In this document: one piece after another, positions 4,233 through 29,916 of the stretch
Numbering within the stretch: position 1 is the first letter of the stretch
Layout: every line of letters starts with the position of its first letter
Source of the DNA: a virus
Lineage: Duplodnaviria; Heunggongvirae; Uroviricota; Caudoviricetes
Virus record (IMG/VR): IMGVR_UViG_2563366805_000009
Length of the DNA stretch: 40,060 nt
Direction: 5' to 3' (one strand)
Notes under the pieces: model-generated
The model's input: only the letters and a program-made list of their open reading frames with translations
Told to the model about the DNA's origin: nothing
Database searches by the model: none
Position numbers and translations under genes: made by a program

Positions 4233-5086
4233 GCACCATCCTGAAATGGGCGGGAAATAAAACCGCCGTAATGTCCGAACTGAAAAAACATCTTCCTGCT
4301 GGTCCGCGACTAGTTGAACCTTTCGCGGGTTCCTGTGCTGTGATGATGGAGACGGATTATCCCTGCTATCTGGTTGCGGATATTAATCCTGATTTAATCA
4401 ACCTCTATAAAAAGGTTGCCGCTGATTGTGAATCGTTTATATCTCGCGCCAAAGTTTTATTTGAGATCGCAAACAGGGAGGTGGCTTATTACAACATAAG
4501 GCAGGAGTTTAATTACTCAACTGAAATTACTGATTTCATGAAAGCGGTATATTTCCTGTATCTCAATCGTCACGGTTACCGTGGGTTATGTCGCTATAAC
4601 AAGAGCGGGCATTTCAACATTCCCTACGGTAATTATAAAAATCCGTATTTCCCTGAAAAAGAAATTCGCGCTTTTGCAGAAAAAGCCCAGCGAGCAACGT
4701 TTATCTGCGCCAGCTTTGATGAAACGCTGGCGATGTTGAAGGCGGGGGATGTGGTGTATTGCGATCCGCCTTATGACGGTACGTTTTCCGGCTATCACGC
4801 TGACGGCTTTACTGAAGATGACCAGTATCACCTGGCATCCGTTCTTGAACATCGGTCATCAGAAGGACATCCGGTCATTGTTTCTAACAGTGACACATCC
4901 CTGATCCGTTCGCTGTATCGCAATTTTACTCACCACTATATCAAGGTAAAACGCAGCATCGGCGTAGCAGCTGGTGAGAGTAAATCAGCAACAGAAATCA
5001 TTGCTGTTTCCGGGCCGCGCTGCTGGGTGGGATTTGATTATTCGCGTGGCGTGGATAGTTCTGCCGTGTACGGAGTACGTGCATGA
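4229..5086 (+). CDS. dam: DNA adenine methyltransferase (Dam-like, orphan)
   Basis: N-terminal LKWAGNK, FAGS (SAM-binding) and DPPY catalytic motifs. ATGA start/stop coupling with the upstream gene. No adjacent restriction gene. Confidence 0.9.
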
Positions 5087-7497
5087 GCCATGCCGATATG
5101 AGCAACTGCTGCGGCTTTAACGAGGCTGCCGCATCGTTCTCATGGAACAGCCCGAAAAAGGCCATTAACCCTTATCTGGACCCGGCGGAAGTTGCGCCGG
5201 TTTCTGCGCTTTCAAACCTGATCACTCTGTACGCTGCCGATAACGAGCAGGAACAACTGCGCCGCGAGGCACTGAGTGATCAGGTCTGGGAGCGTTATTT
5301 CTTTAATGAATCCCGTGATCCTGTCCAACGCGAAATAGAGCAGGATAAGCTCATTAGCCGGGCAAAGTTGGCGCATGAGCAGCAGCGTTTTAACCCGGAC
5401 ATGGTCATTCTGGCAGACGTCAGCGCCCAGCCCTCCCATATCAGCAAGCCGCTGATGCAACGTATTGAATACTTCAGCAGCTTGGGCAGGCCAAAGGCTT
5501 ATTCCCGCTATTTACGTGAGACGATTAAGCCATGTCTGGAACGACTGGAGCATGTACGCGACAGCCAGCTATCTGCATCTTTTCGTTTTATGGCAAGCCA
5601 TGTAGGGCTGGACGGCCTGCTGATTCTGCCTGAAATGAGTCAGGATCAGGTGAAACGCCTGTCTACCCTTGTCGCTGCGCATATGAGCATGTGCCTTGAT
5701 GCAGCTTGTGGTGATTTGTATGCCACCGATGACGTTAAGCCAGAAGAAATCCGCAAGACATGGGAAAAGGTGGCAGCGGAAACCCTGCGTCTGGATGTCA
5801 TCCCGCCTGCGTTTGAGCAACTCCGTCGGAAAAGAAACCGCCGTAAACCCGTGCCCTATGAACTCATTCCGGGTTCGCTGGCGCGTATGTTGTGCGCCGA
5901 CTGGTGGTACCGGAAATTATGGAAAATGCGTTGCGAATGGCGGGAAGAGCAGTTGCGTGCTGTCTGCCTGGTCAGCAAAAAAGCATCTCCCTATGTCAGC
6001 TATGAAGCCGTGATGCATAAACGTGAGCAGCGCCGCAAGTCACTGGAGTTTTTCCGTTCTCATGAACTGGTGAACGAAGAGGGCGACACGCTGGATATGG
6101 AAGACGTGGTAAACGCCAGCAGCAGCAACCCGGCGCACCGCCGCAATGAGATGATGGCCTGTGTTAAAGGTCTGGAGCTTATCGCGGAAATGCGCGGTGA
6201 CTGCGCCGTTTTCTACACCATTACCTGTCCGTCACGTTTCCATTCCACGCTCAATAACGGCAGACCAAACCCAACCTGGACAAATGCGACGGTAAGACAA
6301 AGCAGCGATTATCTGGTCGGCATGTTTGCTGCATTTCGTAAGGCGATGCACAAAGCCGGGTTGCGCTGGTATGGCGTGCGGGTGGCTGAGCCGCATCATG
6401 ACGGTACAGTTCACTGGCACCTGTTGTGTTTCATGCGCAAAAAAGACCGCCGCGCCATTACTGCATTGTTGCGTAAGTTTGCCATCCGTGAAGACCGCGA
6501 GGAACTGGGTAATAACACTGGTCCACGCTTTAAATCTGAGCTGATAAACCCGCGCAAAGGAACGCCGACAAGCTACATCGCGAAATACATCAGTAAGAAC
6601 ATTGACGGGCGTGGTCTGGCTGGCGAGATCAGCAAGGAAACGGGTAAATCCCTGCGTGATAACGCTGAATACGTTAATGCCTGGGCGTCTCTGCATCGTG
6701 TTCAGCAATTCCGCTTCTTTGGTATTCCGGGACGTCAGGCTTACCGTGAACTTCGCTTGCTGGCTGGTCAGGCGGCAAGGCAACAGGGTGACAAAAAAGC
6801 AGGTGCGCCGGTACTGGATAACCCGCGTCTTGATGCCATTCTGGCTGCTGCTGATGCTGGTTGTTTTGCCACCTACATCATGAAGCAGGGCGGCGTACTG
6901 GTTCCCCGCAAATATCACCTCATCAGAACCGCTTATGAAATCAACGAAGAGCCAACCGCCTATGGCGATCACGGTATTCGTATTTATGGCATCTGGTCAC
7001 CCATTGCAGAGGGCAAGATCTGCACTCATGCAGTGAAGTGGAAAATGGTTCGTAAGGCCGTTGACGTTCAGGAGGCGGCAGCCGACCAGGGCGCTTGCGC
7101 CCCTTGGACTCGTGGCAATAACTGTCCCCTTGCTGAAAATTTGAACCAACATGAGAAAGATGAATCAGCAGATGGGGATACCAGAACGGACATTACCTGC
7201 ATGGATGACAAGGAATTGCACGATTACCTGCACAGTATGAGCAAAAAAGAGCGCCGGGAACTGGCAGCAAGATTGCGCCTGGTTAAACCGAAACGGCGTA
7301 AAGACTACAAACAGCGAATTACAGAGTATCAGCGTCAGCAGCTCGTCTATGAACTGAAGTCCAGAGGATTTGATGGCAGCGAGAAAGAGGTCGATTTGCT
7401 CCTTTGCGGTGGCAGTATTCCGTCAGGAGCAGGCCTGCGTATCTTCTATCGGAACCAGCGTTTGCAGGAAGATGATAAGTGGCGGAACATGTATTAA
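5083..7497 (+). CDS. A: Replication initiation endonuclease gpA
   Basis: 804 aa with the HUH-type motif [13 protein letters not shown] and the catalytic Tyr motif [10 protein letters not shown], typical of P2/186 A proteins. Confidence 0.9.
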
Positions 7498-7589
7498 TCA
7501 CGCGGGTTAACAATTCGTGCTCTTAATAATACCAGGCATATCAGGCTGATGAACGTAAAAAAACGTTTTACATCAGTAAGATTATTATA

Positions 7590-7609
7590 TACTGTAAATA
7601 TAAACAGTG
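7590..7609. promoter_or_regulatory. LexA (SOS) box
   Basis: TACTGTAAATATAAACAGTG fits the consensus TACTG(TA)5CAGTA (CTGT-N8-ACAG). It lies 42 nt upstream of the AGGAGG-ATG at 7641-7651. Confidence 0.6.
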
Positions 7610-7749
7610 GTTATATGTACAGTATTGCGTATGGTGTTATAGGAGGAAAGATGCAGGACTATTTTTTGGAGTCTTTGAAGCTCCAGCGCATTGATTTTTT
7701 TCTTAAGCTTGTAGCGGCTAGTGAGTGTAGTGATGAAGAGAAGGGGCTA

Positions 7750-8902
7750 AATAGCTGCGCGGAATAGTAGATCACTGAAAGGGAACTCAGCCCGGATTGT
7801 GCGATCTGATCAATCGCCAAACCAACCAAAATCACCAACCGGACTGAGCGATGCCGATCATAGTACCAATACCCCGTGGCGAACGACGCCTGATGCAGAA
7901 AGCTATTCATAAAACGCGTGATAAAAATCATGCCCGCAGACTCACGGCCATGCTGATGCTTCATCGGGGTGAACGGGTCAGCGATGTTGCCAGAACTCTC
8001 TGTTGTGCCCGTTCATCCGTTGGTCGCTGGATTAACTGGTTTACGCACTCAGGTATTGAAGGCCTGAAATCCTTACCCGCAGGGCGCTCCCGACGCTGGC
8101 CTTTTGAACATATCTGCACCCTGTTACGTGAGCTGATAAAGCATTCTCCCGGCGATTTTGGTTATCAACGTTCACGCTGGAGCACCGAATTACTGGCAAT
8201 AAAAATCAATGAGATAACCGGTTGCCAGTTACATGCAGGAACCGTTCGCCGCTGGTTGCCATCTGCGGGGCTTGTATGGCGCAGGGCCGCGCCAACTCTG
8301 CGTATCCGTGACCCACATAAAGATGAAAAGATGGCGGTAATCCACAAAGCGCTGGATGAATGCAGCGCAGAGCATCCGGTATTTTATGAAGATGAAGTGG
8401 ATATCCACCTTAATCCTAAAATCGGTGCGGACTGGCAGTTGCGCGGACAGCAGAAACGGGTAGTGACGCCGGGGCAGAACGAAAAATACTATCTGGCCGG
8501 CGCACTGCACAGTGGCACGGGTAAAGTCAGCTACGTGGGCGGCAACAGCAAAAGTTCAGCGCTGTTTATCGCTCTGCTGAAGCACCTGAAAGCCACTTAC
8601 CGGCGGGCGAAAACAATCACGCTGATCGTTGATAACTACATTATCCATAAAAGCCGCGAAACACAGCGCTGGTTGAAAGCAAATCCCAAGTTCAGGGTAA
8701 TTTACCAGCCGGTTTACTCGCCGTGGGTGAATCATGTGGAACGGCTATGGCAGGCACTTCATGACACGATAACCCGTAATCATCAGTGCCGCTCAATGTG
8801 GCAGTTACTGAAAAAGGTCCGCCATTTTATGGAAACCGCCAGCCCATTCCCCGGAGGAAAACATGGTCAGGCAAAAGTGTAGCGGTATTAGGCGCAGCTA
8901 TT
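7750..8902 (+). mobile_element. IS630 (1153 bp, intact)
   Basis: Terminal inverted repeats: AATAGCTGCGCGGAATA at the left end, and the reverse complement AATAGCTGCGCCTAATA at the right end. TA duplication (7748-49 and 8903-04) within a CTAG target. The length equals the 1153 bp I recall for IS630. Confidence 0.9.
7851..8882 (+). CDS. IS630-family (Tc1/mariner-like) DDE transposase, 343 aa
   Basis: Full-length ORF between the IRs. N-terminal HTH regions and a DDE-type C-terminal domain (YEDEVDIHLNP ... LIVDNYIIHKS ... PWVNHVERLW). Confidence 0.95.
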   Translation: MPIIVPIPRGERRLMQKAIHKTRDKNHARRLTAMLMLHRGERVSDVARTLCCARSSVGRWINWFTHSGIEGLKSLPAGRSRRWPFEHICTLLRELIKHSPGDFGYQRSRWSTELLAIKINEITGCQLHAGTVRRWLPSAGLVWRRAAPTLRIRDPHKDEKMAVIHKALDECSAEHPVFYEDEVDIHLNPKIGADWQLRGQQKRVVTPGQNEKYYLAGALHSGTGKVSYVGGNSKSSALFIALLKHLKATYRRAKTITLIVDNYIIHKSRETQRWLKANPKFRVIYQPVYSPWVNHVERLWQALHDTITRNHQCRSMWQLLKKVRHFMETASPFPGGKHGQAKV

Positions 8903-9027
8903 TAGCTCTGCAGTGGGTTTCTGAATTGACTGATGAGTTGATGGCGAAAATTCGAAGCCATGAATACAGTAGGTCGATGGATGTAATCAGTTGAGCTTGT
9001 TTCGTTAGGACTTGATAAGGGAACCGA

Positions 9028-9048
9028 AAAGGGGCATTAAGCCCCTTT
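9028..9048. terminator. Hairpin between convergent genes (AAAGGGGC-attaa-GCCCCTTT)
   Basis: 8-bp GC-rich stem. It lies downstream of both the restored small ORF (+) and the 99-aa lipoprotein gene (-). Confidence 0.5.
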
Positions 9049-9061
9049 CTCATAAGTTGAT

Positions 9062-9361
9062 TTAGTTGTTCCCCAAAGAGCCGGCCATGGCTGCATATTT
9101 AATTTCTTCGCTGGGTATTTCAGGATGTAGTTGAATTTGCCTGATGATATAGCCAGGAACTTCGTCACTCCACAGTTTCGCCGCGTCCTTACAGACCTTA
9201 TACGCGAAGTCTCTATTCTCAAAGGCATAGGATTTTCCGTATGCATATTGCTGACAGGCATGAACATAAGCTCCGAAGTCGCCGTCTTTATCTGGCAAAG
9301 CACATCCAGCTAAGGCTATGATGATTGCTACTAACGTAAAGGAGAAAGTTATACGTTTCAT
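9062..9361 (-). CDS. Lipoprotein, unknown function (99 aa)
   Basis: Signal peptide with lipobox LAGC (MKRITFSFTLVAIIIALAGC). Confidence 0.7.
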   Translation of the reverse strand: MKRITFSFTLVAIIIALAGCALPDKDGDFGAYVHACQQYAYGKSYAFENRDFAYKVCKDAAKLWSDEVPGYIIRQIQLHPEIPSEEIKYAAMAGSLGNN

Positions 9362-9469
9362 GGTCTCTTTCTAAGCGTTTAGCATTATTTAACTAAGGGG
9401 TATCTGCCGTGATTTGGTAGTCCCTGATATATATTCTCAGGGACTATGCTGAAGTAGCTTTAATTTTGA

Positions 9470-10276
9470 TTATTTAGAAAGGTACTTATCTCTAAGTTGA
9501 TTCAGTCTGTCAGCATCGCGTTCTGAAAACTCGGCGTCACCATAGATCGATTTCCCATCTGCGTCTTCAAGGCCAATGACTGTGACGGTAAATATAGCAT
9601 CAGCCGGAACTTTAAGTTTTCCCCAATCAGAGTATCTATTAGGGGCTAATTTCCAGTTGGCTTTCTCACCTGGTTCCAGACCTCCAGAAATTTTATAGTT
9701 GAAGACGTCAGAGAACCAAGGGACGCTTCTTCCTGGGCTGGCAATAACTCCTTTGAAGAATACTCTGGCAACCGCTTTGTCTGTTCCGTTTTCAACGCTA
9801 ATATCCAGAATTGGCTGATCATTGCCGTAATCCTCTTTCTGGAAATAAAAACGGGAACGTTCGACCTTGAAGGCTTTCATTTTTTCCGCAGCCTGTGTTG
9901 CAGAGGTTTGTTTGGCTTCCAGTTCTTTTATTTCTTGCAGAGCCTGTTCTTTCTCTCTCTTCTCACGCTCAAGGCGAATAGTTTGTGCGTAATTTATAAC
10001 CTCATCACCAGTTTTACCTTCCAACGCTGACTTAATTTTTGTTTCGTAGACGTCCCCAGAAGACGTTCCAGCCTGCATTAGCTCTCTCATGTTGATTTGG
10101 CTAAAGGCAACGACTTTAACTGCATCATCAAACTGAGCTTTTTTATCTGCAGGTAAGGACTCTCTTACTTTTTGAATGGACTCTTTCATCGACTGATCGC
10201 TTGATGCATCGATCTTCGGTTTGTCACAAGCAGTAAGCAGCAGAGCAAAAGCAATTACGCCAGTTAATTTCTTCAT
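9470..10276 (-). CDS. Lipoprotein, unknown function (268 aa)
   Basis: The internal Met at 10276 gives MKKLTGVIAFALLLTAC (lipobox LTAC). Central coiled-coil-like EKREKEQALQEIKELEAK segment. The 24-codon upstream extension in the ORF track lacks support. Confidence 0.75.
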   Translation of the reverse strand: MKKLTGVIAFALLLTACDKPKIDASSDQSMKESIQKVRESLPADKKAQFDDAVKVVAFSQINMRELMQAGTSSGDVYETKIKSALEGKTGDEVINYAQTIRLEREKREKEQALQEIKELEAKQTSATQAAEKMKAFKVERSRFYFQKEDYGNDQPILDISVENGTDKAVARVFFKGVIASPGRSVPWFSDVFNYKISGGLEPGEKANWKLAPNRYSDWGKLKVPADAIFTVTVIGLEDADGKSIYGDAEFSERDADRLNQLRDKYLSK

Positions 10277-10437
10277 ATCCCTATCCCAATCGTAAAAAAA
10301 CAAGGCTAATCCTAACAGGATTAGCGGGCATGACAAACTCATAGCCATATAGGTGTGCTGTATAAATTAGCGGGATGAGAAAGCCTGCACAGACCCTCAT
10401 GTTGAAACTTGATTTTAGCTCAAAAGAGCTGACACTA

Positions 10438-10805: not shown

Positions 10806-10824
10806 GGCGTGGCGGGGATACGAG
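10806..10824. other. Probable cos cohesive-end sequence
   Basis: GGCGTGGCGGGGATACGAG shares its first 13 nt with the 19-nt cohesive end I recall for phage 186 (GGCGTGGCGGGGAAAGCAT; P2 is GGCGAGGCGGGGAAAGCAC). It lies in a non-coding stretch between gene A and gene Q, as expected. Confidence 0.6.
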
Positions 10825-10983
10825 CGCGCGCTCGCTTAGTTTTGTAACACTCTGAGTAAGGTCGCTTTTTAGAAGCAAATGGCTTGCAAATTTTTTCAAC
10901 ATTGAGGTAATTTGTTAGGTATCGAAGGATAAATTAAGACAAGAGCAAATTCTTATTGCTTTTTGGATGACTAGGTGCAAGTT

Positions 10984-12090
10984 ATGACAGGTAGTGTCCC
11001 AGTAGTGCTTTCTGAGTCTGAGTTAAAGTCGATCTTGACCTTAACTGAACGTTTCACATGGAACGTTGCAAGGCCAATTATTGCGTCTTTAGGGCTGCCA
11101 ACAGGTAGGGGGCGTGAAGCAACAAACGAAAAAATACTAGAAAGCCTCATTGATCTTAAAAGTAAAGATAGGCAAAAGTTTGATGGCATTATGGCAAACG
11201 TAAATGACCTAATTTTGGGTCAGGTCGTTTATGGTGAAAAAGCAATATTTAGTTTGACTGTAGATAATAGTGTAATTAAAACACTAAATGACAGATTTAG
11301 TTTCCAATGGAATTTGATGAATCAACCATCATTATTGGTTGATTCGATCCTTGATGATGTCCAATTGCAAAATGCTGTAAAAAATCAACCTGAACTTGTT
11401 AATTATTCTATTCAAAACACCCAGTCAATACTTGTTTTTTCATCTGTCAGAGAATTAGTTGTAAGAGAAAAAATTCCCCCGTCAGCACTTGCGCAATACA
11501 AGCAGTTTGATGAAATTATTGCAAAGCGAAAAGAAAAGCGACAATGTTTTGATGTCTGTATATTAGACTCTGTTACTAATAAAATTCATGTTTTGGTAGA
11601 TACTAATGGTAATATTATTGGTGATAATGTTACTTTTGCAAAGAGTAACATTATTCGTGAATTGTATAATCATGTCGGTTATGAATTTAAATCATCGGAA
11701 AAAGATTTTTATCCGTTAATTGAGCCAATTTTCAAACAAAATTCATTGCCTTATTCAAAATTAAGCTATAAAGTCTTTGATTTGTCATTTTTGACGAATG
11801 AGGGGACTACGCATAAAGAAAAGAAAAATGTGGCCACTAAAGACTTACGTGATGATTTGTTTAATAAGGAAGGCATCAAAGCAGTAGGCAGTATTGGTTT
11901 GTATCGTATTGGAATTAGAGTTGATAGAAATAATCCAAAACTGCAATTAGCGGATAACGTAGAGCTTATCATTCCGGGAACACTCCGCAGGCATCTAGGA
12001 GGGAGTAGTTGCTCTCCTGTTAACTATGCTATATTAAGTAAATGTATATCCAAAGATGATTTCGAAACCCTCACAAAGCTGATATTATAA
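10984..12090 (+). CDS. Unknown protein, gene 1 of the three-gene cassette (368 aa)
   Basis: Long AT-rich ORF. ATG 10984 is preceded by TAGGTG; GTG 10975 is an alternative start. No Walker A or other motif I recognise. A possible helix-extended-helix-like N-terminal segment (LGLPTGRGREATNEKILESLIDL). Confidence 0.8.
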   Translation: MTGSVPVVLSESELKSILTLTERFTWNVARPIIASLGLPTGRGREATNEKILESLIDLKSKDRQKFDGIMANVNDLILGQVVYGEKAIFSLTVDNSVIKTLNDRFSFQWNLMNQPSLLVDSILDDVQLQNAVKNQPELVNYSIQNTQSILVFSSVRELVVREKIPPSALAQYKQFDEIIAKRKEKRQCFDVCILDSVTNKIHVLVDTNGNIIGDNVTFAKSNIIRELYNHVGYEFKSSEKDFYPLIEPIFKQNSLPYSKLSYKVFDLSFLTNEGTTHKEKKNVATKDLRDDLFNKEGIKAVGSIGLYRIGIRVDRNNPKLQLADNVELIIPGTLRRHLGGSSCSPVNYAILSKCISKDDFETLTKLIL

Positions 12091-12102: not shown

Positions 12103-12537
12103 ATGAAGGATGGTGATATGCCCAAGATCATCAAAGAAATGTGTGCAGAACGCCCTGAAATTGGGGCGTTAGCTTGCTATTTGTACGATGAAATCGAGGC
12201 AAGGGCTAAAAAATCATCAAATATAGCTTTAAGTTATAAGGATTTATTTAATATAGCTGGTGGTTATAATAAGGTTTTACAGCCAGAAACGTATGAGCAG
12301 GTTATCTATCCGGCCATACAAATTCTTTGTAGCCCAAAGGTTGATTTTTTAAAACTCAATTATTGGTTCATTGATGATTTTCATGACCCTGTAGAACTTG
12401 AAATAGAGGAAGTTATTGAGGCGGAAATCAGTCAATCTTTAGCAAACCCATTTACAGGGGAGCTTATGTATGACTATAAGTCATTCGTATTTCCTTTTTT
12501 TACATTAGATGAATCTAAATCAAAGGATATTATCTGA
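12103..12537 (+). CDS. Unknown small acidic protein, gene 2 of the cassette (144 aa)
   Basis: GGAG at 12093 with ATG at 12103, 12 nt after the gene-1 stop. Asp/Glu-rich. No recognisable motif. Confidence 0.75.
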   Translation: MKDGDMPKIIKEMCAERPEIGALACYLYDEIEARAKKSSNIALSYKDLFNIAGGYNKVLQPETYEQVIYPAIQILCSPKVDFLKLNYWFIDDFHDPVELEIEEVIEAEISQSLANPFTGELMYDYKSFVFPFFTLDESKSKDII

Positions 12538-13202
12538 TGTTAAAAATGTCTGCAGCAATGAGTTTGGCTGATATTGATAATGATATTTTTCTTCAGCGTA
12601 TTAATGCTTCTATTACTCGTGTTAGATTTGCACTTCAATCGTACGATAATTTCAAACAATTTGTCAGGATTGAACTTGATTCTGCTGTAAAGGAAATAGA
12701 AGAGAATTCAAATAAGTTAAACTTCGATTTAACAGAAGATCAGCTTACTTTAATTTTATTGGCCAATATCAAAAATAAAGATATGGGCATTGAAGCATTT
12801 CATGAAAATAATCAGCGCGGACATTGTGATATTACAATAAAACTAAAGGATTATATTTGGCATGGCGAAGCCAAAAAACATACATCTTCATATAGTTATT
12901 TATTTAAAGGGTATGCTCAACTCACTGAACGATATAGTACAGGGACCGTAGACAGCGCAAGTGGTGGATTGATTATCTATACTCGTAATAGAAAATGTAA
13001 TGAAATGATGAGCAACTGGAAGGCGCATTTAGATAAATTCGCACCAAGAATTCATGCCTGTAAATCTATAACGATTACTCCTTGTCAAAAAAATCCATTG
13101 GTTTTTTATAGCCAGCATGTTCACACAGTTACTCAACTGAATTATGAAGTTATTCATTACCCTGTAAATCTATATCATGAGCCTGTAGATCCGGATCTTT
13201 AA
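12537..13202 (+). CDS. Putative PD-(D/E)xK-fold nuclease, gene 3 of the cassette (221 aa)
   Basis: Its start overlaps the gene-2 stop (TGATG). The sequence GIEAFHE..GHCDITIKLKDYIWHGEAKKH gives an E...D(98)-x12-E(111)-x-K(113) pattern typical of restriction-endonuclease-like folds. Confidence 0.75.
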   Translation: MLKMSAAMSLADIDNDIFLQRINASITRVRFALQSYDNFKQFVRIELDSAVKEIEENSNKLNFDLTEDQLTLILLANIKNKDMGIEAFHENNQRGHCDITIKLKDYIWHGEAKKHTSSYSYLFKGYAQLTERYSTGTVDSASGGLIIYTRNRKCNEMMSNWKAHLDKFAPRIHACKSITITPCQKNPLVFYSQHVHTVTQLNYEVIHYPVNLYHEPVDPDL

Positions 13203-13242
13203 GTTTTAATGCTCATGTCTTGGTGATTTTAAACTAAAGAAT

Positions 13243-13266
13243 AAAAGCCTGTTTGTACAGGCTTTT
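13243..13266. terminator. Bidirectional rho-independent terminator
   Basis: AAAAGCCTG-tttgta-CAGGCTTTT. The A-run/T-run flanks serve both the cassette (+) and gene Q (-). Confidence 0.7.
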
Positions 13267-13271
13267 AAATA

Positions 13272-14309
13272 TCATTCAATACCTAAATTATAATCTTCAA
13301 AACGCATGACTTCTTCTCCAAGCCAGTCGTTCAATTCCTGAAGGCGCTTCTGCAGAGGTATCAACTCGTTGCGAACAAAGACGCGGCTGGCTTTCTCCAC
13401 ATCCCCAAAACCCCCAACATTACTCGGCATAATCCCCATCATTTGCGGCGGCACACGATGTGCTGCCATCATGTCATCCCGACTCACGTTCTTGATATTC
13501 AAAAACTCATCCTTCGCTGCGACCTCTGACAACGGGATAATCTGAAGTCCGTCCTTTTTGCCGTTAGGCGAGTACATAAACAGATTGCGGAAGTTGCCAG
13601 GGCCTTTGGCGCTTTTCATTGCGTTGCGGAGGTTGTTCACATCTTCCTGGTTCTGCGCGGCATCGGTCATATACATGATGAAGCCTGCATGGCTACCGTT
13701 AATGTAATACTTGCGGCGGAACAGCGTGGCGGACTCGTTGAGCAGGGCTGACGGAATGGCAGAAAGATAACCGGGCAGGCCGTAGATCTCCTGGTTGATG
13801 TCCGGTTCCATCAGATGAAAAATGCTGCCTTTCGTGAACTGATACGGCAGGGTTGTCATACCGTATTGCACAAACCAGTAGGTATCCAGGTCTAATCCGC
13901 GTCGGGTGTATTTTGCAAGCGCAGGCTCAATAGCGATAACTTCACCGAATCGGTTCGTGCGTTTCTCCAGGTAGGCGTTACCAAATACCAGATAGTCCTG
14001 CACAAAACGCGAAAAAGCCTGCTGGCTGAGCAGCGGATGAGGGATATAGGTACTGGTCAGAATGTTGCACTTTACTGCAATCGGGGAACTGTGATGCACG
14101 GCGGCGCGGAAGGTGCGCGCCAGTCCGTCAAAGCTGACGGGCGGCTCATACCAACGGTCCATCTGTACGCATTCCACATAATCCAGCAGTTCTCGGCGGT
14201 CCAGAACAGGAACGGGATCGCCGAAGCTGAATGCTTCGGCTGTAGTTTGACTTTTAAGCTGGATCTGTTTCGTCGCCGCAGCGCGGTTCTTCTTACTCTT
14301 TCCCATCAA
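13272..14309 (-). CDS. Q: Portal protein gpQ
   Basis: 345 aa. Position and sequence are typical of P2 Q (PBSX-family portal), with the stop of P overlapping its start. Confidence 0.9.
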   Translation of the reverse strand: MMGKSKKNRAAATKQIQLKSQTTAEAFSFGDPVPVLDRRELLDYVECVQMDRWYEPPVSFDGLARTFRAAVHHSSPIAVKCNILTSTYIPHPLLSQQAFSRFVQDYLVFGNAYLEKRTNRFGEVIAIEPALAKYTRRGLDLDTYWFVQYGMTTLPYQFTKGSIFHLMEPDINQEIYGLPGYLSAIPSALLNESATLFRRKYYINGSHAGFIMYMTDAAQNQEDVNNLRNAMKSAKGPGNFRNLFMYSPNGKKDGLQIIPLSEVAAKDEFLNIKNVSRDDMMAAHRVPPQMMGIMPSNVGGFGDVEKASRVFVRNELIPLQKRLQELNDWLGEEVMRFEDYNLGIE

Positions 14310-16072
14310 AAAATCTCCACAATATTGCTGGTATTGGCGGATTCGCCCTGCAGCGGTTCGTTAAACAGTGCGTGCATCGTTGCCCAGGCCAGATCGGCGT
14401 GGCTGGCTTCTTCGCTGCGGCTGGCTTCATAGGTCGGGCGGTTGCCACTGGCGGTGGTGGCGCGACGGATTGCCATAAAGGACTGCGCTATGTCGGTGTG
14501 TCCGGCGTCAAACTCCAGACGGCGGTGGCTGATAATGTCGTAGGCCTTGAGTACCAGGGCGTTTTTAACGTTGGGGTTGTAGACAAACTCCCGGACGGCA
14601 GGAAAAAACGCTTTCACGTTCTCGTAAACCCCGTGACCAACGCCGGTTGAGTCGATACCGATATAGGTCACGTTGTACTGTTCGGTCAGTTTTTTGATGG
14701 CGTCAGCCTGGGCGCGGAAGTCCATTCCGCGCCACTGGTGACGCTCAAGAATGCGGAACTTACCGCCCGGCACGGCTGGCGGCGCCACCACCACGCATCC
14801 GGCGCTGTCGCCGTTCTGCGTACCTTTCGCCGGGTCATATCCGATCCACACTTCGCGCCAGCCAAACGGGCGCAGGGCCAGTGCATGAAAGTCGGTCCAG
14901 ACTTCCCAACTGTCCACCATGCACGCCTGCAGCTCGCTGAGTGGGAACACAGACGCGAGATCGTCCACGAACTCACACATCAGCAGGTTCTGGTATTCGT
15001 CCGGGCTGTACTCCATGCGCAACTGGTCGAGGTCGAACAGGTTACAGCCGCCGCGCACCGCATCTTCCACAGTGACTATCTGGCGGTACTGCCCGTCTGC
15101 GCACAGCAGGCCGGGGGCCAGATTGCTGTGGGACAGGTCGATGTCCACCTTATCGGCTTTGCTGCGCCCTCGGTTGAACAGCGCACCGGACCAGAACGGA
15201 TAAGCACTGTGTGTCAGGCTGGATGGCGTGGAAAAATAGGTTTGTCGCCATTTTTTGTGAATAGCCATACCGGAAGCCACTTTGCCCAGCTCCTGGAATT
15301 TCGGTATCCAGAAATATTCATCCAGATACAGGTTGCCGTGGTAACTCTGGGCCGTGCGGGCATTGGTGCCGAGGAAGTACAGCGTGGCCCCGTTAGGAAG
15401 CACCATCGGATCGCCTTTCAGCTCCACCTCCACTTCTTTGGCGAAGTCGATGATGTACTGCTTAAAGACGTGGGCCTGAGCCTTGCTGGCGGAAAGGAAA
15501 ATCTGGTTACGCCCGGTTAGCAGGGCGTCAATCAGGGCTTCACGGGCAAAATAGAAGGTCGCGCCGATCTGGCGTGACTTCAGCAGGTTGCGGATGCGGT
15601 TGGTTTTTCCGGCTTCCCACCAGTGGCGCTGGTAGTTGAACATGGAGGAATGGAAGATTTCTTCCAACTTCTCAATCTGTTCATCGGTGAAAACGTTCTT
15701 TTCCGGCTGACGGCGCGGGCCTTTGTTGCGGTTGGCGACGTTAGGGTTTAAGTCGGCTTCGTTGCCGCCATTGTTAAACTTGCCGATCCGCGCATGGCGC
15801 TCCGACTGGCGCGCCAGCAGGTCAATCTCTTTGAAATCTTTCCCTTCTTTGTGCTCCTTCATAATGAGCTGGCAGTAGCGTGCGGCGGTGGTGAGCTGCA
15901 TCTGATCAAGCGGCCCATAGTCACCCCACTTGTCGCGTTTTTTCCAGCTGTGAACGGTTGCAACTTTCTCGCCCAGCATTTCAGCAATGCGGGCTACGCG
16001 GTATCCCTGAAAGTACAGCAGCATGGCCTGCCGACGGGGATCGAGATCTGCGGGTGTCAGTGTGGTGTTCAT
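14306..16072 (-). CDS. P: Terminase large (ATPase) subunit gpP
   Basis: 588 aa, with P2 P-like order and size. Terminase-type motifs (RQIGATFYFA Walker-A-like region, DEYFWIP Walker B). Confidence 0.9.
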   Translation of the reverse strand: MNTTLTPADLDPRRQAMLLYFQGYRVARIAEMLGEKVATVHSWKKRDKWGDYGPLDQMQLTTAARYCQLIMKEHKEGKDFKEIDLLARQSERHARIGKFNNGGNEADLNPNVANRNKGPRRQPEKNVFTDEQIEKLEEIFHSSMFNYQRHWWEAGKTNRIRNLLKSRQIGATFYFAREALIDALLTGRNQIFLSASKAQAHVFKQYIIDFAKEVEVELKGDPMVLPNGATLYFLGTNARTAQSYHGNLYLDEYFWIPKFQELGKVASGMAIHKKWRQTYFSTPSSLTHSAYPFWSGALFNRGRSKADKVDIDLSHSNLAPGLLCADGQYRQIVTVEDAVRGGCNLFDLDQLRMEYSPDEYQNLLMCEFVDDLASVFPLSELQACMVDSWEVWTDFHALALRPFGWREVWIGYDPAKGTQNGDSAGCVVVAPPAVPGGKFRILERHQWRGMDFRAQADAIKKLTEQYNVTYIGIDSTGVGHGVYENVKAFFPAVREFVYNPNVKNALVLKAYDIISHRRLEFDAGHTDIAQSFMAIRRATTASGNRPTYEASRSEEASHADLAWATMHALFNEPLQGESANTSNIVEIF

Positions 16073-24518: not shown

Positions 24519-25897
24519 GCACAAAATTTTATACCCTGCTGACGGATATTGGCGCGGCGAAACTTGTCAGCGCCGCCGCGCTCGGTGTGCCGCTAAAAAT
24601 TACCCATATGGCGGTGGGCGATGGTGGCGGAACATTGCCGACGCCGGACGCAAAGCAGAGTGCACTGGTAAATGAGAAACGTCGGGCTGCGCTGAATATG
24701 CTCTATATCGACCCACAGAACAGCAGCCAGATTATTGCTGAACAGGTGATCCCTGAAAACGAGGGCGGTTGGTGGATACGTGAAGTGGGCCTGTTTGATG
24801 AGTCAGGGGCATTGATTGCCGTGGGCAACTGCCCGGAAAGCTATAAGCCGCAACTGGCTGAAGGCAGCGGGCGTACCCAGACCGTGCGCATGGTGCTGAT
24901 TACCAGCAGCACGGACAATATCACCCTGAAAATCGACCCTGCTGTAGTGCTGGCAACCCGCAAGTATGTGGATGACAAGGCACTGGAGCTGAAGGTGTAC
25001 GCGGATGATCAGATGGCAAAACATCTTGCCGCACCGGACCCGCATTCACAGTATGCAGCCAAAGAAAGTCCTACGTTTACCGGGACACCCAAAGCGCCAA
25101 CGCCAGCGACGGGGAATAACACCACGCAGGTTGCGACCACCGCATTTGTTCAGGCGGCACTGACGGCTCTTATTAATGATGCGCCAGCCACGCTGGACAC
25201 GCTGAAAGAAATAGCCGTAGCCATTAACAATGATCCGAAATTCAGTACCACCATTAACAATGCGCTGGCACTGAAAGCGCCGCTGTCGAGTCCGGCACTC
25301 ACCGGAACGCCAACCGCACCGACTGCGGCACAGTCGGTCAACAATACACAGATTGCCACCACGGCATTTGTGAAATCGGCGATTGCGGCAATGGTGGGTT
25401 CTGCACCTGCGGCACTGGATACACTGAACGAACTGGCGGCGGCGCTGGGGAATGACCCGAACTTTGCCACGACAATGCTTAATGCACTGGCAGGTAAACA
25501 ACCGCTGGACAATACGCTGACTCATTTGAGTGGAAAGGATGTTGCTAGTCTTCTCGCATACCTTGGTTTGGGAGAAGCGGCAAAACGGAATGTGGGAACA
25601 GGGGAAAATCAGATACCTGATATGTCATCATATGCATCAGGTTCAGGCTGGCGAAAAATGCCAGATGGTTCAATTGAACAGTGGGGACGAATTAGTTTTC
25701 CTGGTGAACACGGGCCTGTATCCGCCAATGTTTCATTCCCGATTCCATTTACACAGACACCTGGCATTGTAATTGTGTGCGATGGTGGTTTCGGGGGCGG
25801 GAATATGTGGGGGGCGACCAACTGGAGCACTACCGGCTTCATAGCTCACTGCAATTATGGTCTTGAAGGTGGTGCGTTTTTCGCTAAGGGCTGGTAA
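24515..25897 (+). CDS. H: Tail fibre protein gpH (constant part fused to variable cassette Sv1)
   Basis: 460 aa with tail-fibre repeats (TTAFV..AP..LDTL.E.A.A..NDP.F.TT..NAL..K.PL, twice). Crossover site ix1 lies in-frame at 25551-25576. The C-terminal 110 aa (25565..25897) form the invertible cassette. Confidence 0.9.
25551..25576. other. Invertase crossover site ix1 (Hc half / Sv1 half)
   Basis: TTCTCGCATACC-TT-GGTTTGGGAGAA is a 26-bp imperfect palindrome resembling hix/gix/pix sites (compare hixL, TTCTTGAAAACC-AA-GGTTTTTGATAA). Confidence 0.75.
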
Positions 25898-26340
25898 TGA
25901 TGAAATATCTGTACGTAAACAACCTGGCATATCCTTACGAACTTCAGTCTCTTTATGTTGAAAAAGGTGAATGGCCTGAAGAAAAAGGTGTTGATATAGA
26001 CGAAGTAATTTTCAGGGAATATTTCTATGACACACCACCAGAAGGAAAATACAGATGTGTTGGAGAAGATGGACTGCCTGCATGGGCAGATATTCCTCCA
26101 CCAACACGTGAAGAACAAATTGCATCAGCCGAAACTAAAAAGCAGCAATTGATTAATCAGGCCAACGATTATATGAACAGTAGACAATGGGTTGGTAAAG
26201 CGGCTATTGGTCGTCTGAAAGGTGAGGAACTGGCGCAATATAATTTGTGGCTGGATTATCTGGACGCACTGGAGCTGGTCGATACTTCCGGTGCACCAGA
26301 TATTGAATGGCCTACGCCTCCGGCAGTTCAGGCCAGATGA
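25897..26340 (+). CDS. Tail fibre assembly chaperone Tfa1 (partner of Sv1, gpG/Mu U-like)
   Basis: 147 aa. ATGA coupling to the H stop. The C-terminal tail-fibre-assembly motif region overlaps the convergent Tfa2 gene. Confidence 0.85.
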   Translation: MMKYLYVNNLAYPYELQSLYVEKGEWPEEKGVDIDEVIFREYFYDTPPEGKYRCVGEDGLPAWADIPPPTREEQIASAETKKQQLINQANDYMNSRQWVGKAAIGRLKGEELAQYNLWLDYLDALELVDTSGAPDIEWPTPPAVQAR

Positions 26341-26914
26341 CATCCGGCGCGGTGCTGGTATCTGTTGCCGTCACCGCGTCAATGTAATCCAGCACGGCGT
26401 TAAGGCGGGTTGTTTCTGCCTGCGTCAGCTTCCGTCCGGCCTGTAATTTCAGTTGAATCAGACTGATGGAGGCCATTGCAGTATCAATCAGCGACTGGCG
26501 CTGTGCTTCTGCTGCATCTACTGCTGCGCCGTGCTGTGCCTCAGTATCGGTCACCCATTTCTCACCATCCCATTTATCGTATGGCGTTAACGGGGCGATA
26601 GTGGTTGTATTTTCAGGGTAATCACCCGGAGTTGTGATTTCTTTGGCTTCTCCCGTTTCGGTGTTATAGACGATTTCACCGCGATGGTCTGGCACATATT
26701 CCCATGAGTTAAAATCTGCAGAACGGCAGATAGCATAACCAGCCTTATATGTGCCTGGTGAATCTAAACAGGAATATGCCGGGATACCAACACCAACGGC
26801 AAGATATTCATTTGAAGTGGAAATATATTCCCGTATTTCACCATCATAGTTATAGACGGTAATATTCCCTGCCTTCGTGGCAATAATCTCGCTATTTAAT
26901 ACAGCGTTATCCAT
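26312..26914 (-). CDS. Tail fibre assembly chaperone Tfa2 (partner of Sv2), copy 1
   Basis: 200 aa. Convergent with Tfa1, as for Mu U/U'. Confidence 0.8.
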   Translation of the reverse strand: MDNAVLNSEIIATKAGNITVYNYDGEIREYISTSNEYLAVGVGIPAYSCLDSPGTYKAGYAICRSADFNSWEYVPDHRGEIVYNTETGEAKEITTPGDYPENTTTIAPLTPYDKWDGEKWVTDTEAQHGAAVDAAEAQRQSLIDTAMASISLIQLKLQAGRKLTQAETTRLNAVLDYIDAVTATDTSTAPDVIWPELPEA

Positions 26915-27393
26915 TATGCAGCCCTCACAATATAATTAAAGGCAATGTTACGTGGGCGGTTCTCATTTGCGGTTGGGACAACGGCTGAAGCATTAAAATT
27001 CGCATACAGGGAGCGTTGATACCCGGATGCTGATGCACCACTTAATGCGGGAGCTTTTGACTCCGAAGCCGAAAAGGCCCCTGACACGTATCCTAATAAC
27101 CCTTGTGAATCGCCAATTGAACTGTAGCCAACCACCCCGGTAATGTTTCGGATAGCATCTCCTTGTGCTGAAAGCAGAGTTCGCCCACTATCCACTCCCT
27201 TTCCACCATCCCAGCCACGAATAAACTCACCGCGTAAATCAGGCAATTTTAACGTCGGGTAAGCCTTTGCCAGATTAGGGTAATCTTCAGCAGAAAAAGC
27301 CGCACCGTTGCATTTCAGCCAGCCTGTTGGCGGTGTGGCTGAAGGCCATGGAACAGGCACACCAACAGGCAGCGCAGAGCCTTCCCCTAAACC
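26914..27393 (-). CDS. Silent alternative tail-fibre C-terminal cassette Sv2, copy 1 (no start of its own)
   Basis: The frame is continuous from crossover site ix2. GLGEGSALPVGVPVPWPSATPPTGWLKCNGAAFSAEDYP is a Mu S / tail-collar-type receptor-binding C-terminus. Confidence 0.75.
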   Translation of the reverse strand, partial: GLGEGSALPVGVPVPWPSATPPTGWLKCNGAAFSAEDYPNLAKAYPTLKLPDLRGEFIRGWDGGKGVDSGRTLLSAQGDAIRNITGVVGYSSIGDSQGLLGYVSGAFSASESKAPALSGASASGYQRSLYANFNASAVVPTANENRPRNIAFNYIVRAA

Positions 27394-27407
27394 AACGTTT
27401 AAGAAAA
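27382..27407. other. Crossover site ix2 (Sv2 half / invertase-side half)
   Basis: TTCCCCTAAACC-AA-CGTTTAAGAAAA. Confidence 0.7.
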
Positions 27408-27437: not shown

Positions 27438-27463
27438 TTCTCGCATACCTTGGTTTAGGGGAA
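27438..27463. other. Crossover site ix3 (duplicated Hc half / Sv2 half)
   Basis: TTCTCGCATACC-TT-GGTTTAGGGGAA, preceded by a 21-bp copy of the H constant region (27417..27437 is identical to 25530..25550). Confidence 0.7.
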
Positions 27464-27931
27464 GGCTCTGCGCTGCCTGTTGGTGTGCCTGTTCCATGGC
27501 CTTCAGCCACACCGCCAACAGGCTGGCTGAAATGCAACGGTGCGGCTTTTTCTGCTGAAGATTACCCTAATCTGGCAAAGGCTTACCCGACGTTAAAATT
27601 GCCTGATTTACGCGGTGAGTTTATTCGTGGCTGGGATGGTGGAAAGGGAGTGGATAGTGGGCGAACTCTGCTTTCAGCACAAGGAGATGCTATCCGAAAC
27701 ATTACCGGGGTGGTTGGCTACAGTTCAATTGGCGATTCACAAGGGTTATTAGGATACGTGTCAGGGGCCTTTTCGGCTTCGGAGTCAAAAGCTCCCGCAT
27801 TAAGTGGTGCATCAGCATCCGGGTATCAACGCTCCCTGTATGCGAATTTTAATGCTTCAGCCGTTGTCCCAACCGCAAATGAGAACCGCCCACGTAACAT
27901 TGCCTTTAATTATATTGTGAGGGCTGCATAA
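27452..27931 (+). CDS. Sv2 cassette, copy 2 (not joined to full-length H)
   Basis: Mirror image of 26914..27393. Confidence 0.7.
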   Translation, partial: GLGEGSALPVGVPVPWPSATPPTGWLKCNGAAFSAEDYPNLAKAYPTLKLPDLRGEFIRGWDGGKGVDSGRTLLSAQGDAIRNITGVVGYSSIGDSQGLLGYVSGAFSASESKAPALSGASASGYQRSLYANFNASAVVPTANENRPRNIAFNYIVRAA

Positions 27932-28533
27932 TGGATAACGCTGTATTAAATAGCGAGATTATTGCCACGAAGGCAGGGAATATTACCGTCTATAACTATG
28001 ATGGTGAAATACGGGAATATATTTCCACTTCAAATGAATATCTTGCCGTTGGTGTTGGTATCCCGGCATATTCCTGTTTAGATTCACCAGGCACATATAA
28101 GGCTGGTTATGCTATCTGCCGTTCTGCAGATTTTAACTCATGGGAATATGTGCCAGACCATCGCGGTGAAATCGTCTATAACACCGAAACGGGAGAAGCC
28201 AAAGAAATCACAACTCCGGGTGATTACCCTGAAAATACAACCACTATCGCCCCGTTAACGCCATACGATAAATGGGATGGTGAGAAATGGGTGACCGATA
28301 CTGAGGCACAGCACGGCGCAGCAGTAGATGCAGCAGAAGCACAGCGCCAGTCGCTGATTGATACTGCAATGGCCTCCATCAGTCTGATTCAACTGAAATT
28401 ACAGGCCGGACGGAAGCTGACGCAGGCAGAAACAACCCGCCTTAACGCCGTGCTGGATTACATTGACGCGGTGACGGCAACAGATACCAGCACCGCGCCG
28501 GATGTCATCTGGCCTGAACTGCCGGAGGCGTAG
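27931..28533 (+). CDS. Tfa2, copy 2
   Basis: Translation identical to 26312..26914. Confidence 0.75.
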   Translation: MDNAVLNSEIIATKAGNITVYNYDGEIREYISTSNEYLAVGVGIPAYSCLDSPGTYKAGYAICRSADFNSWEYVPDHRGEIVYNTETGEAKEITTPGDYPENTTTIAPLTPYDKWDGEKWVTDTEAQHGAAVDAAEAQRQSLIDTAMASISLIQLKLQAGRKLTQAETTRLNAVLDYIDAVTATDTSTAPDVIWPELPEA

Positions 28534-28948
28534 GCCATTCAATATCTGGTGCACCGGAAGTATCGACCAGCTCCAGTGCGTCCAGATAATCCAGCCACAA
28601 ATTATATTGCGCCAGTTCCTCACCTTTCAGACGACCAATAGCCGCTTTACCAACCCATTGTCTACTGTTCATATAATCGTTGGCCTGATTAATCAATTGC
28701 TGCTTTTTAGTTTCGGCTGATGCAATTTGTTCTTCACGTGTTGGTGGAGGAATATCTGCCCATGCAGGCAGTCCATCTTCTCCAACACATCTGTATTTTC
28801 CTTCTGGTGGTGTGTCATAGAAATATTCCCTGAAAATTACTTCGTCTATATCAACACCTTTTTCTTCAGGCCATTCACCTTTTTCAACATAAAGAGACTG
28901 AAGTTCGTAAGGATATGCCAGGTTGTTTACGTACAGATATTTCATCAT
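28505..28948 (-). CDS. Tfa1, copy 2
   Basis: Translation identical to 25897..26340. Confidence 0.75.
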   Translation of the reverse strand: MMKYLYVNNLAYPYELQSLYVEKGEWPEEKGVDIDEVIFREYFYDTPPEGKYRCVGEDGLPAWADIPPPTREEQIASAETKKQQLINQANDYMNSRQWVGKAAIGRLKGEELAQYNLWLDYLDALELVDTSGAPDIEWPTPPAVQAR

Positions 28949-29280
28949 TACCAGCCCTTAGCGAAAAACGCACCACCTTCAAGACCATAATTGCAGTGAG
29001 CTATGAAGCCGGTAGTGCTCCAGTTGGTCGCCCCCCACATATTCCCGCCCCCGAAACCACCATCGCACACAATTACAATGCCAGGTGTCTGTGTAAATGG
29101 AATCGGGAATGAAACATTGGCGGATACAGGCCCGTGTTCACCAGGAAAACTAATTCGTCCCCACTGTTCAATTGAACCATCTGGCATTTTTCGCCAGCCT
29201 GAACCTGATGCATATGATGACATATCAGGTATCTGATTTTCCCCTGTTCCCACATTCCGTTTTGCCGCTTCTCCCAAACC
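28948..29280 (-). CDS. Sv1 cassette, copy 2 (silent)
   Basis: Mirror image of 25565..25897 ([23 protein letters not shown]...). Confidence 0.7.
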
Positions 29281-29294
29281 AACGTTTAAGAAAA
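29269..29294. other. Crossover site ix4 (Sv1 half / invertase-side half)
   Basis: TTCTCCCAAACC-AA-CGTTTAAGAAAA. Confidence 0.7.
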
Positions 29295-29349
29295 TGCAGA
29301 GGTAACAGCTAACTGGCATCATCTCCGGTTTTTATTCAGGGGGATGATC

Positions 29350-29916
29350 ATGCTTATTGGCTATGTACGCGTGTCAACAAATGACCAGAACACCGATTTG
29401 CAACGTAATGCACTGAACTGCGCGGGATGTGAGCGGATTTTTGAGGACAAAATCAGTGGCACTAAGTCCGACAGACCGGGGCTGAAAAAACTACTCAGGA
29501 CACTATCGGCAGGAGACACGCTGGTTGTCTGGAAGCTGGACAGGTTGGGGCGCAGTATGCGGCATCTTGTTACGCTGATAGAAGAGTTGCGCCAGCGTGG
29601 TGTGAATTTCAGAAGCCTGACTGACAGTATTGATACCAGTACCCCAATGGGCCGTTTCTTTTTTCATGTCATGGGTGCCCTGGCTGAAATGGAACGCGAA
29701 CTGATAGTTGAACGTACCAGGGCAGGGCTGGCTGCAGCTCGTGCCAAAGGCAGAGTAGGTGGACGCCGTCCTAAGTTGACCACCGAACAGTGGGCACAGA
29801 TTGGGCGTTTACTCGAGGCCGGAGAATCAAGACAGCGTATTGCACTGATTTTTGATGTAGGCGTTTCTACCATTTATAGAAAATTTCCGGCAAATAAGAT
29901 CAATGAATCCCCCTGA
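29350..29916 (+). CDS. Serine DNA invertase (Hin/Gin/Cin/Pin family)
   Basis: MLIGYVRVSTNDQNTDLQRNAL..DTLVVWKLDRLGRSMRHL..MGRFFFHVMGALAEMERELI is near-identical in pattern to e14 Pin / Mu Gin. It has a C-terminal HTH. Confidence 0.95.
   Translation: MLIGYVRVSTNDQNTDLQRNALNCAGCERIFEDKISGTKSDRPGLKKLLRTLSAGDTLVVWKLDRLGRSMRHLVTLIEELRQRGVNFRSLTDSIDTSTPMGRFFFHVMGALAEMERELIVERTRAGLAAARAKGRVGGRRPKLTTEQWAQIGRLLEAGESRQRIALIFDVGVSTIYRKFPANKINESP

Follow-up and report, generated by a model that had tools for sequence, protein, structure and literature searches.

The window analyzed in this study, a stretch of 40,060 nucleotides (IMG/VR record IMGVR_UViG_2563366805_000009), is an E. coli P2-like prophage carrying a cassette of three codirectional low-GC genes, the third of which probably encodes a metal-dependent PD-(D/E)xK DNA endonuclease that would serve as effector in an anti-phage system formed by all three genes and carried in a cos-proximal hotspot. 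Gene 3 has the corresponding fold in its structure model and its active-site residues are intact and invariant, while the trio is strictly syntenic and resides in phage and satellite hotspots as well as in defense islands. In this way, an anonymous entry in a catalog of the P2 hotspot can be turned into a candidate defense system whose three parts are predicted to act as sensor, coupler, and effector.

Gene 3 (12537–13202, + strand) encodes a protein of 221 aa (WP_016239485), which was assigned to a family of PD-(D/E)xK (restriction-endonuclease-fold) proteins that has no Pfam model. The catalytic signature D98-x12-E111-A-K113 at 12828–12875 (+) was established by reading the codons directly, together with the secondary structure of the model and the conservation of the residues. 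G95, H96, and C97 are encoded at 12819–12821, 12822–12824, and 12825–12827, followed by D98 at 12828–12830, E111 at 12867–12869, and K113 at 12873–12875, so that the translation, numbering, and coordinates in the preliminary description, which had proposed this signature, were all exact. The bare D...ExK motif is no evidence by itself, because the pattern D-x(8-25)-[DE]-x-K was present in 72% of 5000 shuffles of the gene 3 protein, and in 45% when a hydrophobic residue was required after the D. The real protein contains a single match to the pattern, at D98.

The three residues D98, E111, and K113 were invariant in 36/36 close homologues of gene 3, which were mostly from Enterobacterales and had 37–86% identity. 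When 1.84 billion cluster representatives were then searched with a profile (E ≤ 1e-3), 568 family members were obtained, each standing for a 50%-identity cluster, and conservation was calculated from the best 149 of these 568 representatives, aligned at a pairwise identity of at most 50%. Among these best 149 of 568, D98, E111, K113, G95, G125, and Y133 were 100% conserved and E67, Q128, R132, and H207 99% conserved, followed by W108 (98%), W161 and L129 (97% each), and D68 (88%). The conservation among homologues on which the nuclease proposal depended was thus found in both sets. The conserved residues outside the signature include E67-D68 (12735–12740, +), at the start of the helix 67–76 that forms alpha1 of the nuclease core in the model, and the near-invariant motif Q128-L-x-x-R132-Y133 (12918–12935, +), located in the helix alpha2 (119–133) after the ExK strand. 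The acidic helix residue of the active site had originally been sought at E86 or E90. Residues 85–88 form a strand in the model and E86 is poorly kept (D 32%, N 15%, Q 11%, and E 8% in the family alignment), while E90, which is D or E in 89% of the family alignment, lies after strand 1. The residue in question is instead E67.

Five histidines outside the canonical PD-(D/E)xK motif were also conserved family-wide, at 83% (H89), 88% (H96), 71% (H194), 90% (H196), and 99% (H207). This cluster (window positions 12801–13157) is unaccounted for by the model and could bind another metal or a ligand. C97 and C183 were considered as a possible zinc site, which was dropped, since these residues were conserved in only 45% and 59%, respectively.

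The AlphaFold2 model of gene 3, built from the 36-sequence alignment, had a mean pLDDT of 89.6 and a pTM of 0.85, with residues 91–100 less confident (pLDDT 71). In this model, an N-terminal helical hairpin (helices 10–32 and 36–56) is followed by helix 67–76, the strands 85–88, 99–103, and 106–115, helix 119–133, and strand 142–149, an order which, as modeled, reproduces the restriction-endonuclease fold with its alpha-beta-beta-beta-alpha-beta core, as had been predicted for gene 3. E67 lies on alpha1, D98 directly before strand 2 (99–103), E111 and K113 on strand 3 (106–115), and Q128 on alpha2. The core is followed by helix 154–171 and three further strands; the roughly 100 C-terminal residues, for which a regulatory or target-binding domain had initially been considered possible, continue the alpha/beta pattern in the model, and no distinct domain is evident there. 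The nearest solved structures were those of the type IIP enzymes OkrAI, BamHI, BstYI, and BglII, with 6–10% identity.

Gene 3 accordingly shares with the PD-(D/E)xK superfamily the core fold and two features conserved among its homologues, an acidic residue where strand 2 begins and the (D/E)-x-K on strand 3. Because the order of the fold elements and the placement of the residues in the model are canonical, the data support gene 3 as a predicted restriction-endonuclease-like nuclease of a previously unclassified family, with its predicted active site intact. The original proposal of a PD-(D/E)xK nuclease with the D98/E111/K113 signature gained support from the invariance of these residues, their strand placement in the model, and the fold matches. 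A testable catalytic center comprising E67, D98, E111, and K113 can be offered for a family of at least 568 clusters that is annotated only as "hypothetical."

The sequence searches returned no established family for gene 3. Against Pfam, only sub-threshold matches to Rep3_C and DUF7628 were obtained, and a scan of 70 divergent family members gave only scattered sub-threshold matches, with PDDEXK_9, PDDEXK_6, HamA, and Mrr_cat each appearing in 1–2 of the 70. There was no model in Pfam, NCBIfam, or PADLOC covering any of the three cassette genes, genes 1–3 had no match in PADLOC-DB v2.0.0 at E ≤ 1, and only families of unknown function were matched in PHROGs. The PDB, searched by sequence and by profile, contained no solved structure with a relevant match, and the phage GenBank collection contained no near-identical DNA.

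The two upstream genes were analyzed in the same manner. Gene 1 (10984–12090, + strand) encodes a protein of 368 aa (WP_000148121), for which a confident model (pLDDT 86) was obtained. In this model, its fold class is that of RdgC, RexA, Iml3, and Chl4, making it a putative DNA-binding component, and it resembles a DNA-encircling protein; no enzymatic or pore-forming feature was recognized in it. This DNA-binding fold class was described for lambda RexA (PMC11077077). In the lambda RexAB system, RexA is an RdgC-like DNA-binding sensor with which gene 1 shares its fold class, and gene 1 would be a second example, after RexA, of this fold in phage exclusion.

Gene 2 (12103–12537, + strand) encodes a small acidic protein of 144 aa (WP_001324710, pI 4.4), and its stop codon and the gene 3 ATG overlap at the junction CTGATG. 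Residues ~54–138 of gene 2 form a conserved domain, which is the constant companion of gene 3. A gene 2 homologue adjoined gene 3 in 27/27 viral loci from IMG/VR and in 14/14 non-viral loci, including locus L003, where it is fused to a TIR protein, and the Brucella homologue was matched by BLASTP at 4e-11. Two loci, from Methylocystis and from one further genome, had a gene 1 homologue that was truncated (168 aa) or divided between two ORFs (L006, 5067–5573; L014, 3512–4568), with genes 2 and 3 intact. These two loci may represent either a decayed sensor or a working two-gene core.

Within the prophage, the cassette sits in the hotspot between gpA and Q, and the P2 gpA-Q hotspot is a reservoir of anti-phage systems (Rousset et al., 2022; PMC9122126). 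The replication endonuclease gene gpA was found at 5083–7497 (phrog_91), and the convergent portal gene Q at 13272–14309 is followed by the terminase gene at 14306–16072. The GC content of the three genes is approximately 32%, compared with 52–60% in the phage core. A cos-like core, GGCGTGGCGGGGATACGAGCGCGC, was located at 10806–10829 (no strand assigned), where it matched, with 0 mismatches, a string from the pFR109 insert, derived from a P2-like prophage, when that string was read as its reverse complement (PMC9122126, Table S2A). The pFR109 string resembles the P2/P4 cos region in other cloned inserts of the same table, and we infer that 10806–10829 is cos; the canonical P2 cos 19-mer was absent from the window. 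Since the cos-like core lies upstream of gene 1, the cassette would have cos on one side and the portal gene on the other and would form the far left end of the genome as packaged. Gene 3 and the portal gene are separated by an 11-pair hairpin (13242–13267, no strand assigned), which is likely a terminator common to both. Of 5426 complete E. coli genomes, 9 contained identical DNA and a further 12 carried a variant with 85% identity; the E. coli copies were all chromosomal and annotated as three hypothetical proteins.

Two other genes were observed between gpA and the cassette. An IS630-family transposase gene (7851–8882, +; NCBIfam, 1.1e-76) is inserted in the gpA-cos hotspot, and Table S5A of the hotspot study gives the same IS630 arrangement for contig NZ_KE137155 (PMC9122126). 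A DUF6694 lipoprotein gene (9470–10348, −; phrog_7468) is found alongside the cassette in P2-like prophages of E. coli (L001, L016) and is broken by IS1 in strain ECONIH4 (L002). It has no counterpart in the alphaproteobacterial loci and is therefore probably a separate moron rather than a component of the system.

The context of the family was surveyed qualitatively in 41 loci, taken from contigs encoding family members and from IMG/VR, using HMM searches of the loci. The order gene 1-2-3 was found in 27/27 IMG/VR loci, 22 of which had an adjacent P2-type portal gene. Two of the other five were examined (L021 and L032) and proved to be lambdoid prophages, in which the trio lies between O/P/ParB-HTH genes and DinI/DUF1367/antiterminator Q genes, that is, in the lambdoid P-Q region. 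The same order was found in a Providencia P4-like satellite between the primase gene and psu (the P4 hotspot), at the end of a Mu-like prophage, in another prophage, and, at ~30% identity, in the chromosomes of Bradyrhizobium, Brucella intermedia, and Rhizobium as well as on a metagenomic contig. All three proteins were confirmed as homologous across these taxa, which extend from Enterobacterales to Alphaproteobacteria. The neighbors in the chromosomal and metagenomic loci included SIR2_2 proteins, DUF87/methylase genes, type I restriction-modification genes, a complete CBASS operon (SAVED, SMODS, Cap2, JAB), and a Gabija-like pair of AAA_15/21 and UvrD genes. In this qualitative survey of 41 loci, the cassette was thus found in defense hotspots of mobile elements and next to known defense genes. 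In L032, a gene for an S-type pyocin/Cytotoxic-domain protein (620 aa, 7571–9433) was also noted ~2 kb downstream of the cassette, after a tail-fiber-like gene.

The gene 3 domain was additionally found in several other architectures. In six representatives it is C-terminal to NACHT and HEAT repeats, and in one it follows NB-ARC/TPR (P0103, P0135, P0152, P0163, P0168, P0169, and P0216 together); Pfam revealed no candidate output domain besides the gene 3 domain in these fusions. One representative (P0209) carries the gene 3 domain followed by a LexA-type Peptidase_S24 domain, and P0274 is a fusion of gene 2 and gene 3. In L003 (2765–4764), a phage-like contig, a gene 3 homologue shows start/stop coupling with a protein of 458 aa containing a TIR domain (79–199), a hydrophobic segment, and a C-terminal gene 2-like domain. 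By eye and by a weak Pfam match, the hydrophobic segment is possibly a two-helix membrane segment. The TIR partner proved not to be a gene 1 homologue. The L003 and P0274 fusions are each known from a single short metagenomic contig, and P0274 could be a frameshift artifact at the overlapping junction. Taken together, the fusions and the NACHT, S24, and TIR variants indicate that gene 3 and the C-terminal domain of gene 2 behave as one unit, that the upstream module is exchangeable, and that the nuclease domain serves as the output of STAND switches. Its occurrence at the C-termini of NLR-like proteins and beside TIR suggests that prokaryotic immune systems reuse it as an effector module of a new kind.

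In the mechanism that we propose, gene 1 would be a ring- or horseshoe-type RdgC/RexA-like DNA-binding protein that senses foreign DNA or the replication or recombination intermediates of the phage. The translationally coupled gene 2 would bind the nuclease, either keeping gene 3 inactive or coupling it to gene 1, a relationship suggested by the overlapping stop and start codons, by the P0274 fusion, and by the TIR-2TM-gene 2 protein beside gene 3 in L003. Upon infection, the gene 3 nuclease would be freed or assembled, probably as a dimer like its BamHI-like structural relatives, and would then cut DNA, with E67, D98, and E111 binding the metal and K113 acting in catalysis. An effector role of the gene 3 domain is favored because the NACHT/NB-ARC fusions show no other output domain in Pfam. 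Cleavage may be confined to phage DNA or may extend to host DNA, as in abortive infection, and a defense phenotype would be expected.

A broader joint reading of these results is tentative and, in our judgment, somewhat short of probable. It holds that the cassette represents a widespread undescribed immune system consisting of an RdgC/RexA-like DNA sensor, an adaptor (gene 2), and a new restriction-fold nuclease, that is, a Rex-like exclusion with a nuclease output. The adaptor–nuclease pair would be a portable effector module which is also joined to a membrane-anchored TIR, and the nuclease alone would be joined to NACHT-HEAT and to the LexA-type S24 domain.

The exchange of the upstream module could also be explained by the opposite assignment of roles, in which genes 2 and 3 form a constant sensing core, a REase-like protein specific for DNA structure or sequence plus its adaptor, reporting to interchangeable effectors (gene 1 in most loci, a membrane TIR NADase elsewhere) and cleavage by gene 3 is not the killing step. 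The TIR-2TM-gene 2-domain protein of L003, which replaces gene 1 and is coupled to the gene 3 homologue, fits this assignment, as bacterial immunity usually employs TIR domains as effectors or signal generators and effector swapping on a constant sensor is the common mode of modular defense evolution. Nevertheless, the assignment is unlikely: the TIR variant occurs on one contig only, the DNA-binding fold of gene 1, lacking any enzymatic or pore feature, fits a sensor better than an effector, the NACHT/NB-ARC-repeat fusions offer no alternative Pfam output domain, and the invariance of the catalytic residues in the best 149 of 568 representatives argues for a working enzyme. Similarly, the resemblance of gene 3 to OkrAI, BamHI, BstYI, and BglII, the lack of a methyltransferase in the cassette, and the likeness of gene 1 to a DNA-encircling protein might point to methylase-less restriction (type IV-like or with another means of distinguishing self from non-self), in which incoming phage DNA would be cut directly by a BamHI-like gene 3, with DNA loading or specificity provided by the other two genes. 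However, the identity to these type IIP enzymes is only 6–10%, neither gene 3 nor the 70 family members matched the BamHI family in Pfam, and the motif of gene 3 is ExK, whereas that of BamHI and BglII is ExE or ExQ. Gene 3 further differs from the BamHI group in its additional N-terminal helical hairpin and in having two conserved non-enzymatic partners instead of a methyltransferase. As the NLR-like STAND and S24 fusions also speak for a regulated effector that needs a trigger, and against a constitutively active restriction enzyme, we regard methylase-less restriction as decidedly unlikely.

The overlap of a small acidic upstream gene with the start of the nuclease gene, and the constant location of the cassette on mobile elements or islands, would also suit a toxin–antitoxin or addiction module that stabilizes the mobile element, with gene 3 as a DNase toxin, gene 2 as its antitoxin, and gene 1 as a regulator. 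This explanation partly coincides with the main one, since many toxin–antitoxin modules are abortive-infection defenses. As a separate explanation it is very improbable, given that a third component of 368 aa is strictly conserved and that the cassette lies in hotspots proven to hold defense systems (PMC9122126), beside CBASS, restriction-modification, and Gabija-like genes. Finally, the frequency of the D...ExK pattern in shuffled sequences and the lack of sequence-level matches to solved structures or Pfam families would be compatible with a chance match in a non-nuclease protein. This reading was effectively refuted by the combined sequence and model data, namely the invariance in the best 149 of 568 representatives, the canonical strand placement, and the fold matches. 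The cassette most likely represents a nuclease-effector defense system that combines a PD-(D/E)xK family lacking a classification with two partners not described before.

This candidate system was compared with known defense systems that use PD-(D/E)xK effectors, including HamA of Hachiman, McrC, Cap4/NucC/Can2, and the nuclease domains of Avs/NLR-like STAND proteins. Unlike these, the cassette contains no helicase (HamB), AAA+ motor (McrB), CARF/SAVED sensor, or cyclase, and the combination of HamA/DUF1837 and the HamB helicase that identifies Hachiman was not found in it. Rst_3HP ("hp + hp + hp," pFR109) is a system of three hypothetical proteins from the same P2 gpA-Q hotspot, which was validated against phage P1 (PMC9122126). 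The identity of the present cassette with Rst_3HP was rejected, because all nine protein pairs had BLASTP E ≥ 0.4; the protein sizes are 333/359/227 in Rst_3HP versus 368/144/221 in the present cassette. In the same study, the cassette corresponds to system #91, with 36 occurrences, no Pfam domains, and no annotation (Table S5B), its accessions being given in Table S5A (PMC9122126). Neither the accessions nor the sequence strings of the cassette were present in Table S2 of that study, which lists the tested systems.

For WP_021580613, a homologue of gene 1, the DefensePredictor supplement gives the label "Predicted novel defense gene" and a log-odds of 8.4; in the part of the text searched, it has no entry among the validated systems. 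A 2026 survey of P2/P4 elements reports the new systems Crouga, Bandua, Aernus, Toga, Reve, and Hailong, none of which matches the architecture of the cassette in the text of the survey (PMC13586616). A literature text search for the protein accessions retrieved no paper. The cassette has thus been catalogued, one homologue has been machine-predicted as defensive, and neither a characterization nor a name was found in the literature searched.

A further feature of the window was observed in the tail-fiber region, where an inverted repeat of 1857 nt has two arms (25551–27407 and 27438–29294) that are 99% complementary and 30 nt apart. The arms cover the C-terminal region of the tail fiber and Collar-domain ORFs, and their near-identity is unusual, unless it is an assembly artifact. 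The repeat, noted along with 29344–29916, adjoins a serine recombinase/invertase (Resolvase + HTH_7) and resembles an invertible tail-fiber segment of the Mu G or P1 C type.
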